Part shown: positions 3,853 through 16,520 of the stretch, piece by piece
How the letters are laid out: each line of letters starts with the position of its first letter
Position numbering within the stretch: the first letter of the stretch is position 1
NCBI RefSeq assembly: GCF_964213995.1
Contig: NW_027590932.1
Coordinates: forward strand, 62,001-126,000
DNA: 64,000 nucleotides
Direction of reading: 5' to 3'
Source of the DNA: Mustelus asterias
Taxonomy: Eukaryota
Position numbers and translations under genes: made by a program
Notes under the pieces: model-generated
Told to the model about the DNA's origin: nothing
Databases searched by the model: none
The model's input: only the letters and a program-made list of their open reading frames with translations

Positions 3853-4511
3853 CTAGACAGGAGCTGCTGTCTGCTGCGGATTGTTTACAATCGCGGGCAG
3901 ATTCAGTCACAATGAACATCGGCGCTGTCAGCTGCTCAAACACAGCGAAGCGAAACCAGAATAACCTCGGATTAAACATTCACCCAATAGTTTCCAGGAC
4001 CAACAGAGAGCCGACAGTTCAGTTCAACCCGTTCCCTTTCCCGAAACCGCACTCGCTCAGGGTGGGAACTCTGATCCTCACACTGAACGGCTGTGAACAC
4101 AAATGTCAATTAACCAAAGCACATTATTAATAAATTACTAAAACGTGGCATTTGATTAGAAAAATACAATCACACAGTATCAGCAGGATCAGAGCCTCAG
4201 CTGCAAACGGGGGGTGGGGGGGGGGGGGGGGGGGAGCTGGTGGATGGACAGTGGAGCCTCCCTTTCTCCTCATTCTGTGGGACACTGGTGGATGACATTC
4301 TGACTAATCAGATTATTCTTGGATGTTGTCAGTCGCCGTCATTCAGAGTCCCATTTGGGAATACGCTCTGTTTAAACAAATAAGTTCAGGACACTCATTA
4401 GGATTTTGTGCGTGTGTGCAACAATTGATTAAATGTTTCAGGAATATTTGATCTCTTTATTACTTTTAGCTCCAATAGTCACCTTCGGTTTAGAATCATG
4501 CAATGATGATA

Positions 4512-7429: not shown

Positions 7430-7795
7430 TCATTTTCTCCTGGATTCCTGTTCCGTAAAATGTCAAAATTAATCCAGCAATTAATCCAGTTTTTTCTGGA
7501 TTACTGCTCTGTAACATATCACTGTGTAATCCAACAAATAATCCAGTTCTCCTGGATTCCTGATCTGTAACATATCACTGTATAATCCAACAATTAATTC
7601 AGTTCTCCTGGATTCCTGATCTGTAACATATCCCAGTGTAATCCAACGATTAATCCAGTTCTCCTGGATCACTGTTCTGTGACATATCACTGTATAATTC
7701 AACACTGAATCCAGTTCTCCTCGAATTCTGCTCTGTAACATTTCACTGTGTAATCCAACAATGAATCCAGTCCTCCTCGAATTCTGCTCTGTAAC
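7430..7795. repeat. Minisatellite, ~56-bp unit, ~6.5 copies
   Basis: Unit AATCCAGTTCTCCTGGATTCCTGATCTGTAACATATCACTGTATAATCCAACAATT; period 56 between 7541 and 7597. Confidence 0.9.
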
Positions 7796-12160: not shown

Positions 12161-12199
12161 GGTTTCTGTACGAGCTCTCGATATATTTGTTACACTGTG
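12161..12199 (-). promoter_or_regulatory. 23-RSS of V5
   Basis: CACAGTG + 23 nt + ACAGAAACC. Confidence 0.95.
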
Positions 12200-12538
12200 C
12201 CTCACGGCGCAGAGATAGGCGGCAGTGTCTGTTAGCTGGGTCTCTCTCACAGTCAGGACACTGAGTTTGTTGTCTCCCCCGACTGTGGCAGTCATCCTCC
12301 CGTGTTGATTGGTTTCTCTTATGACCATCACCAGATGTTGAGGTGGTTGATTTGGGAACTGTCTGTACCAATGCACCATGTTCATCACCCTGGCGCTGGT
12401 ACAATTCATGGTTACGATTCCCTCTTCACTAACTTCCATCCACTGAGGGAGCTGCAGCAACTCATGTTCAACAGTCACCGCGGTGCAGATCAGAGTGAAA
12501 AACAGCAAAAAGAATTTATAAACCCAAAGGACTATCAT
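12200..12538 (-). CDS. TRAV: TCR alpha-type V segment (V5), open frame with contiguous signal-peptide-like N-terminus
   Basis: MIVLWVYKFFLLFFTLICTAVTV-EHELLQ..TMNC..HWYRQFPNQPPQHLV..LTDTAAYLCAVR; Cys23, Trp41 and Cys104 intact; good RSS; no AG acceptor at the usual L/V junction. Confidence 0.85.
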
Positions 12539-12544
12539 ATCACT

Positions 12545-12864
12545 TGATTAAATTTTAATTAATCGTCAGCGATCCTGCTTCAATCTTTGTTGCAACAACC
12601 GACTCATGAGAGATAGAAACTGCACCACTGATACCTGCAAAAATAGAAATAAGAGCTTTAGCGTTGTCATTTTCACTTTACTAGAAACAATGTGATCAGG
12701 GTAATTCAATAATTGCAAATAAAGGAAACAATGTTAAAGGGAAGATCGCTGTGTCAGTATCGTCCGCGAACTGTGCAACTTGGGAACTTACCAGTTGAGA
12801 GACCTGCAGCTGTAAGAATAAGTAAAGAACCAAAGCCACAAAGTTCACAGAGCTGGTGTTGGAT
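12545..12864 (-). pseudogene. Truncated V gene (leader + intron + FR1 only) directly upstream of V5
   Basis: Leader-like exon ending ..FGSLLILTAAGLST G|gtaagt at 12792 (no ATG), acceptor TTTTTGCAG| at 12634, GISGAVSISHESVVATKIEAGSLTIN* with the stop at the Cys23 position. Confidence 0.65.
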
Positions 12865-12939: not shown

Positions 12940-13060
12940 CGATTGGTTCATTCCTGACAGAGCCAGCAGGAGACACCCAATCAGCTCACAGCTCCATTGT
13001 CCTATATTTAATCCAATCAGCTCGGAGTGACTTTGTTCTCCAATCCATGACGTCAGAGAG
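12940..13060 (-). promoter_or_regulatory. V promoter region: CRE palindrome plus CCAAT boxes
   Basis: TGACGTCA at 13048-13055 and four CCAAT/ATTGG boxes; CRE-like elements are known in TCR V promoters. Confidence 0.55.
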
Positions 13061-13922: not shown

Positions 13923-13961
13923 GATTTTTGTACGGGCTGACTGTGCCTCTGTAACAGTGTG
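13923..13961 (-). promoter_or_regulatory. 23-RSS of V6
   Basis: CACACTG + 23 nt + ACAAAAATC. Confidence 0.88.
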
Positions 13962-14399
13962 GGGTTCAGCGCACAGTGATACCGACACAGTCAGAGATAG
14001 GGACACCGGTGATTTAAAGGAAATGCTTTCTTGCCTTGGTCTAAATCAGCAGAGAATCTGTCAGGGAAACCTGCAGACTTTTCTCGCTGCCATGTGCTGT
14101 ATTTCTTCAGTAAATATCTCAGAGCTCCCCTGGATATTGAGTGTACCAGAAGAGAGTCCCGCCAGTGTATCTTGTTGTGTAATTGCAATTCAATATTACT
14201 GTATTTCCTTCCTGGACCGTTAATTCGGGCATTTCCTTCCTGGAAAACTGAATCTTGGCCATTAGTTCCTGTAACAACATATATAACGTGTGAGAAATCT
14301 GTGCGTGAATATAACCCATGAAGCACACACTTGAGATTTGAGCTCAGACTCACCGGGCAGCATGACCATTATTATCAGTAAAGCACACAGGGAACACAT
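13962..14399 (-). pseudogene. TCR alpha/delta-type V segment pseudogene (V6)
   Basis: 46-nt leader 14399-14354 (MCSLCALLIIMVMLP G|gtgagt), V exon from 14268 GQDSVFQ / +GGAA frameshift / EGNTVILNCNY..LFWYTQYP / frameshift / ..FPDRFSADLD.. Confidence 0.92.
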
Positions 14400-14862
14400 G
14401 GTTCCTGATTGGACAGTAAACAGCGACACTGTTTAAACTATGTTGTTGTTTCCAGTCTTATGTCACAGAGTCAACTCAGATCAGAGGCAACTGCAATTGT
14501 TGGGCGTTTCTTAGTTTTGTGATTGGCTAACCTCCCTGAGGTGACGTTAGCTTTGGACCAATCACTGTTTGCTGACGACGAAGGGCAGTTGGCTTTCTCC
14601 AATCAAATTGTAGCCCAGGCTGTGTGCGTCTTTCTCACCCTCTTGCTCTCAGTCATTCTGTCTCTTTCTCGGTTTAACTCGCTTTCTTTCGAACTCAATG
14701 TCGGTATATTTCTTGAGGCAAATCTTTTCAATCAAGGTGAAAAATGAAACAGATAATTTGAAATCTGTCTGATGCACAGTTATTTAGTGTCCAGTGTATG
14801 AGGATAATTAATAGATACCGTTCTAAGTACACCGGGATAAAGTAATCACCCAACTCCGCATG

Positions 14863-15570: not shown

Positions 15571-16038
15571 AGACTGAGCTTTTGCGATTCGTTGAGATGC
15601 GGTTCCACTGGGGAAGCATTGATTTCAGTCAGTCATTATTTTGAACCCAGCAACTTCAACATGTGACAACTCTAAGTCTGCCTTTGGATATTTGATCGCT
15701 TTTGAAAGGTGTGGTCTGCCTGACAGTTAACTGATCTGGAACATTTAAAGTATAGATTGACGACGTTGTTCACCTGGAAGATCGGCAGACTTGTGTGAAT
15801 GGGATCGGGCAACGATTGGAATTGATCTGGTATAATATGAGTAAATATATGTCAAATTTCCCAACAGTGACAATCATTTACCTCAGTGAGCGAAAACACT
15901 CAGATGGGGCTGTATTGTCAGGTTCTGTGGGCACATTTTCTCTGATTTTTAATCCCATGTGTTCTCCTGACAATGAACCATTGATTTTCGACCTGCACCA
16001 GTTTTTGCATGAGGCCGGCGGGAACCTCATTCACTCCA

Positions 16039-16520
16039 GGTCTCAGTGCACAGTAATACACGGTGCTGTCTGTCGTCTTCAAATCGTCAATTGACAAGTG
16101 AAGAGTGTTTTGTTTCAGATTGAGATTCCCGCTGAAATGTTCAAATCGAGGAGCCGTCTCGATAAATGCATAACTAGCAGCTCTGAGCAGATACTGAGGA
16201 GCTCGGAGTGTATACCGGCGATACCAGAACAGGTAATGTTGTGCAGCTGAACTCGATACCGAGTAACTGCAGGGTATTGCTGAATCTTCACCCTCTTCTG
16301 CTTCAACTCCTGGTTCTGACTGGGACACTGAGTCACCGTTACTCATCTCTGAAAATCGGCAACAGAAACGCAGTGGGTTAGAAGGAGTAACAACAACGGA
16401 ATAAACGCCTCGAGGTGGAAATGGGGAATGAATATGGTGATTGAGGATTTCACGCAGAAGTTCAAAATGACAGACCTGCAATCAGGACAACAATCGGAGT
16501 CAGACAGAGTTTCACCCCAT
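16039..16520 (-). pseudogene. TCR alpha/delta-type V segment (V7): open V exon, broken leader and heptamer
   Basis: V exon from 16348 GDSVSQ..IPCSYS..LFWYRR..DSTVYYCALR is intact; leader 16520-16476 is 45 nt (1-nt deletion gives ATG GGG TGA); RSS is TGGAGTG+23+GCAAAAACT (16000-16038). Confidence 0.9.

Follow-up and report, generated by a model that had tools for sequence, protein, structure and literature searches.

The leader of an antigen-receptor V gene is canonically split by an intron, an arrangement 'found in all AgR genes' in the accessible part of PMC12227049, which also describes scattered V exons in elasmobranchs, with TCR-type V exons lying between IgH clusters. One V gene on the minus strand of the window, by which we mean the whole 64,000-nucleotide stretch of Mustelus asterias DNA analyzed here (contig NW_027590932.1, positions 62,001 to 126,000), has no such intron. 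A first-pass annotation, made from the letters of the DNA, had offered two readings: (a) a true intronless leader-V, as in the chicken Valpha1 family, or (b) a copy whose acceptor had mutated from CAG to CCG and whose polypyrimidine tract had become a signal peptide. Is the missing intron a defect of one gene or the trait of a family, and from what did the single-exon leader arise?

The frame that opens at the ATG at 12538 runs uninterrupted through leader and V (MIVLWVYKFFLLFFTLICTAVTVEHELLQ...YLCAVR, 113 codons). The annotation had described a complete V running straight from this ATG into a good 23-RSS, with no AG where V genes splice, and the features collected in Table 1 confirmed both points: the phase-1 acceptor position reads ACC G|CG GTG ACT. 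The nonamer, ACAGAAACC, has one mismatch to the consensus. Application of the -3/-1 rule by eye makes cleavage of the predicted leader after C-T-A plausible. The CCG was also checked as a possible base-call error, and it is real. Contigs of run X2, which may be the source sample, reproduce it with 0 differences over 12334-12657, and a contig of X6, which belongs to a separate study, reproduces it with 0 differences over 12294-12501.

Table 1. Coordinates of the single-exon V gene and its 5' flank in the window.
Feature	Position	Strand	Details
23-RSS	12161..12199	-	CACAGTG (12199-12193), 23-nt spacer, ACAGAAACC (12169-12161)
Single-exon leader+V, TCR alpha/delta V family (family B; nurse-shark 'aV9'-bin type)	12200..12538	-	113 open codons, both Cys, Trp, D-x-A-x-Y-x-C motif
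Predicted signal peptide, 20 codons	12479..12538	-	maximum 9-residue hydropathy 2.93
Canonical acceptor AG position of spliced V genes	12481..12482	-	CG here; the C is the wobble base of Thr19
Approximate A/B fusion zone (A, aV10-like)	12540..12560	-	identity switch
Exon-2 remnant (L-part2 + FR1) of aV10-like V, about 75 nt, with stops	12560..12634	-	contains upstream ATG 12607, 13-codon uORF
aV10-like GT-AG intron, 157 nt	12635..12791	-	donor and acceptor preserved; in a transcript it would fall in the 5' UTR
Former aV10-like leader exon	12792..12848	-	ATG gone in 7/7 chimeric copies
Promoter-like region of aV10-like gene	12942..13055	-	TGACGTCA (13055), ATTGG boxes (13044, 13017, 12981), CCAAT (12946)

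The encoded protein has a V-set domain with the Cys, Trp and second Cys at TCR-alpha spacing, and its best relevant matches in the PDB were TCR-alpha chains. A search for the C-alpha domain (PF09291) gave no match anywhere in the genome, a blank that says nothing on linkage, and neither a J nor a C was located; the window's own contig is 142 kb long. Very probably we are dealing with a germline V segment of TCR alpha/delta type from a single-exon shark family, and this copy is an old fusion whose transcription would use the promoter of a dead aV10-like V.

Eight V-like stretches were found in the window, together with one weak single match at 3993-4151. The gene at 12538 had been called the only intact V, and it is indeed the sole stretch of the eight that combines an open frame with a CAC heptamer. 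The other seven are disabled by frameshifts or by a stop codon in place of the conserved Trp or Cys, or, at 16.0-16.4 kb, consist of an open exon that lacks a CAC heptamer; this last stretch (15990-16400, minus strand) has an acceptor and a good nonamer. At 7480-7780, also on the minus strand, a tandem repeat of about 49 nt includes CACAGTG and gives a false RSS match at 7526.

The window copy belongs to a large family, which we call family B. A search of the shark's own genome with the DNA of the window copy gave at least 40 scored matches, of 94 candidates; the protein search scored 150 of 1252 candidates, and at least 74 of these rows had E <= 5.4e-18. Both haplotypes may be represented in these numbers. 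Sixty-three overlapping family loci were analyzed, and a sequence pattern gave 55 distinct places from 62 of them; these span four subfamilies and may include both haplotypes. The locus skipped by the pattern (L110) has the same single-exon structure. At the canonical acceptor site, none of the 55 paralogous places has AG (GG in 26, TG in 20, CG in 6 and GA in 3). An in-frame ATG is present in 54 of them, at the ancestral position in 48 and two codons upstream in 6, the remaining place having neither. The window copy is of the second kind: its ATG at 12538 lies two codons 5' of the ancestral start, which in this copy reads GTC. A stop falls within the leader in a single place, and over the whole gene the frame is open in 40 places and broken in 14.

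The site of the missing AG varies as the third position of a codon. Among 25 open copies, the Thr codon there is ACG in 14, ACT in 8 and ACC in 3, and the CG dinucleotide of the window copy recurs in five of seven near copies (with the window copy counted or not). In pairs between subfamilies, dS of the leader exceeded dN in seven of seven cases, with only 16 codons in each; the same was true of one of five pairs within subfamilies. In both length and register, the family-B leader is like a spliced one: it consists of 17 codons, a G and a further 11 nt, and the first exons of seven spliced genes comprise 15-19 codons plus 1 nt.

Members of the family were also recognized in other sharks. A colinear leader was seen, at the protein level, in three Chiloscyllium punctatum proteins and in one JGI protein; the bamboo-shark homologues have an identical 21-residue leader type, and in the tree the Chiloscyllium and JGI homologues nest within the family-B clade (support 94/97). 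The available part of supplement 3 of PMC5931798, a table of 448 rows of nurse-shark TCR-alpha cDNA, contains the family-B type in 7 of the 19 rows labelled 'aV9' (rows 391-394 and 400-402, assigned by eye), and row 391 is identical to the mature window V at 50 of 87 residues (hand count). The remaining 12 rows are of different types, and the rows lack leaders and begin at the mature V, so the comparison holds at the level of the family; there, the matches indicate that family B is used in rearranged TCR-alpha cDNA of the nurse shark. The 'aV9' bin as a whole (rows 385-403) is mixed, with nine Ig-like rows, seven of family B, one of family C and two others by eye. A metagenome scan for related loci gave 85 pattern matches, of which 0 were confirmed, and a 'longer' protein search returned 0 family-B members.

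Since AG is found in 0 of 55 places and an ATG in 54, since the site is a Thr wobble base, and since the leader recurs in bamboo shark and the V in nurse-shark cDNA, reading (a) is supported, and judged by these alignments the intronless leader-V characterizes family B as a whole and is no peculiarity of the window copy. Orthology with chicken Valpha1 was not supported by the tree, nor was it rejected (AU p 0.106). Reading (b), in which the acceptor of the window copy alone changed from CAG to CCG and the polypyrimidine tract came to its rescue as a neo-signal peptide, would suit the T-rich composition of the stretch and the use of an ATG other than the ancestral one. For this copy it is nevertheless refuted by the paralogues without AG, the variation at the Thr wobble base and the matching leader in other sharks, where it is conserved in Chiloscyllium.

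An alternative acceptor, the CAG found 14 nt 5' of the conserved Gln in subfamily B2, was rejected, being missing in the window lineage and in subfamily B3 and preceded by purines. In one X1 contig, whose status as RNA is a guess, the 5' UTR of subfamily B2 runs without a gap into the leader. X1 also spans DNA past the RSS, and the contig was therefore left out as evidence of expression. None of the runs is on record as RNA, and no transcript of the window copy or of a family-B leader was seen.

Some family-B genes are arranged in tandem. At least 12 single-exon V genes of subfamily B3 lie in G000:C71:19363772-19397224 (L043, L045, L050, L051, L055, L058-L060 and L090) with a period of about 2.45 kb, and all nine copies examined are open. 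Duplicated copies with a spacing of 1.4 kb occur at L047 (G000:C232:332696 and 334115), L038 and L039; in the latter two, part of the interior of the second copy is deleted.

How did the family come by its leader? The nearest spliced family (L102-L106, family C) groups with family B in the tree (95/89). In register, and over 32 pairs that are not independent, family-B leaders showed an identity of 0.41 to the family-C leader exon (mean z 1.98) and of 0.36 to the end of the family-C intron (z 1.44). Precise loss of the leader intron, in an ancestor predating the bamboo-shark split, is the origin that we consider probable, favored solely by the length and register of the leader. A cDNA-mediated loss is plausible, and the insertion of a rearranged cDNA is excluded because the RSS was kept. 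The leader may instead be an ancient exonisation: in the ancestor of the family the original leader exon would have disappeared, and the 3'-terminal part of the intron, containing an ATG in frame, would have turned into a signal peptide. Two observations fit such an event: the intron end of three family-C loci (L103, L105 and L106) reads in frame as an ATG plus hydrophobic residues, and identities of family-B leaders to the family-C intron end (0.29-0.48) mostly exceed those to the intron ends of other families (0.13-0.37). We regard it as rather unlikely, as identity to the family-C leader exon is equal or higher, the leader has the length of a normal first exon, and no decayed leader exon could be aligned upstream. 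Independently of this question, the last 12 or so intron codons of the three family-C loci could mislead gene predictors, and they illustrate how an exonisation might start.

Single-exon leader-V genes are known from other vertebrates. In the portion of PMC10972964 available, all but three of 48 chicken TRAV1 (Valpha1) genes and most TRGV1 genes have this structure. Like chicken TRAV1, family B is a multi-member TCR V family with leader and V in one exon and a 23-RSS. Unlike TRAV1 and TRGV1, it belongs to another vertebrate class, and that portion of the paper makes no mention of a promoter-capture chimera. P0132, a sequence from Numenius arquata with the TRAV1 motif, fell outside the group formed by family B and its spliced relatives. 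The value given above, which comes from this one long-branched sequence, does not reject joint monophyly; loss of the intron in sharks was likely independent of that in birds. The marsupial (opossum) TRMVj, in the accessible part of PMC2275272, is a TCR V that lacks a leader intron and is joined to D and J in the germline, for which retrotransposition was proposed. Family B likewise lacks the leader intron, but its RSS is still there and its members rearrange. Its direct source was therefore not the processed mRNA of a rearranged gene, and only conversion of the 5' end or a genomic deletion fits. For the window gene itself, a TRMVj-like, retro-processed and germline-joined V was ruled out by the intact RSS.

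With respect to canonical V genes, family B shares the V fold, the leader length and the register, and differs in having no split leader. The literature searched, whose coverage of shark papers was incomplete, contained no report of single-exon leaders in sharks; the accessible parts of PMC12698447 and PMC5278385 contain nothing on them, and in the main text of PMC5931798, as far as available, the word 'intron' has 0 occurrences and gene structure is not described. Compared in this way, the family adds a shark example to a known architecture, and it includes an unusual promoter-capture subfamily whose function is putative. A shark family of some 75 assembly matches has the same exception as chicken TRAV1/TRGV1 and marsupial TRMVj, which suggests that V genes can do without the intron and that its loss probably happened on more than one occasion. 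The working of the receptor is unchanged by this finding. For annotation it matters, as V finders that need an acceptor AG would miss family-B genes or call them pseudogenes.

The region upstream of the window copy has a different origin from the gene itself. Between 13100 and about 12560, sliding identity to an aV10-like family (family A) was mostly 65-90%; from about 12540 onward it was family B that matched, at 60-87%. By this comparison, the window copy is a chimera, whose 5' flank consists of the promoter, an ATG-less leader exon, the intron and the first 75 or so nt of an aV10-like pseudogene (Table 1). Family A corresponds to nurse-shark aV10 (match by eye), a type with 45 rows in the accessible cDNA table of PMC5931798. 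The annotation had described a V without a split leader, which holds in that the gene has none of its own, but it overlooked that, 250 nt upstream, there are a leader-type exon and an intron from a different V family. Its idea that something upstream had been deleted was half right: the family's own promoter and 5' UTR are gone from this copy, and the 5' part of a different V gene stands in their place. The TGACGTCA motif and the ATTGG/CCAAT boxes of the promoter-like region are presumably CRE and CCAAT elements.

The fusion is common to seven places (identities of 100, 100, 99, 97, 93, 93 and 74%), and the best 40 of the 94 DNA matches contain no further members. The V-like stretch at 13961-14400, upstream of the chimeric unit, also lies ahead of L025, a family-A gene without the fusion, and ahead of L007, the distant copy; the promoter therefore stands where it originally was, and it is the B gene that came to be fused to it. 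The route would have been a deletion, an inversion or an unequal exchange.

The upstream remnant also bears on a further reading of the locus. In the NAR-TCR, the supporting V-delta has no leader of its own, and its intact acceptor takes a splice from the upstream NAR J. A superficial likeness of the remnant to NAR framework 1 might suggest that the window V is such a leaderless V-delta, fused to a truncated NAR V. The chance of this is negligible: the remnant is of family A and matches nurse-shark aV10, and, of the 55 family-B places, 54 carry a leader belonging to the gene itself and none has an acceptor. With an ATG and leader of its own, no AG and an aV10-like exon upstream, the window gene was rejected as a supporting V-delta.

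In use, the window copy would be joined by RAG at its 23-RSS to a J-alpha (or D-delta) and transcribed from the captured aV10-like promoter, and the 157-nt intron would be spliced out of the 5' UTR. Ribosomes would then bypass the single weak upstream ATG at 12607 and initiate at 12538, and the hydrophobic N-terminus would be cleaved like an ordinary signal peptide. Leaky scanning is plausible because the 13-codon frame at 12607 has a pyrimidine at -3 and the ATG at 12538 has a purine there; unspliced RNA would contain an additional ATG at 12670.

Whether the copy is in fact used was approached by comparing the chimeric copies, six of seven of which have an open frame. On the branch to the window since L007, the 5' flank (about 495 nt) accumulated 41 substitutions and 6 indels, and leader plus V (333 nt) accumulated 23 substitutions (18 nonsynonymous to 5 synonymous) and 0 indels. 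At the rate of the flank, about 4 indels would be expected in leader plus V, an estimate biased by the AT-rich flank, by the choice of the ORF as open and by the V of L007 being indel-poor as well (3 vs 10). Against close copies, the nonsynonymous to synonymous counts were 8:0 and 7:2; these counts, like the 18:5 on the branch, are at the neutral ratio, which does not decide between function and drift, since V genes here have dN near dS between subfamilies too. In the window lineage, the ancestral ATG is gone, as are the Gly where cleavage usually falls and an almost invariant Ala (A72V). The open homologue P0002 has four derived residues in common with the window lineage, compared with none for L007, which hints that the fusion predates P0002; the tree leaves this fork open.

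That the chimeric window copy is used has, on these comparisons, slightly less than an even chance. An even chance goes to the family being single-exon but this copy being a silent relic, deprived of both the promoter and the ancestral ATG of its family and still open through slow decay and recent segmental duplication. Such a relic would be in keeping with the neutral substitution ratios, the upstream ATG before the start, the one broken chimeric copy of seven, the defects in the other seven V-like stretches of the window and the fact that all 11 family-A copies read are pseudogenes. It fits less well with a leader and V free of indels and stops across 23 polarized substitutions, beside 6 indels in the flank; with P0002, which is open and has the four residues that L007 lacks; and with the six of seven copies that keep splice sites and promoter motifs. 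A silent copy is compatible with the claim made for the family and disputes function only.

A fuller account, which we hold to be less likely than not, is that sharks lost the leader intron of a whole TCR-alpha V family independently of birds and that one branch of family B later took over the promoter of a V gene in decay, whose leader exon and intron became a spliced 5' UTR. The product would be a working V that has regained an intron and was kept open for long, probably across species. Within a single V family, the chimeric subfamily lets genes that have a 5' intron be compared with genes that lack it, and one promoter with another.

Other remains of aV10-like genes were seen in the same genome. 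The 11 pseudogenes read (L008, L014-L020, L022, L025 and L030) include several in which the donor is deleted. A second type of 5' relic is represented by L009, L010 and L013, which retain the promoter and leader exon of family A; in these, the intron breaks off ahead of the acceptor and continues into sequence resembling that at 16838-15592 of the window.
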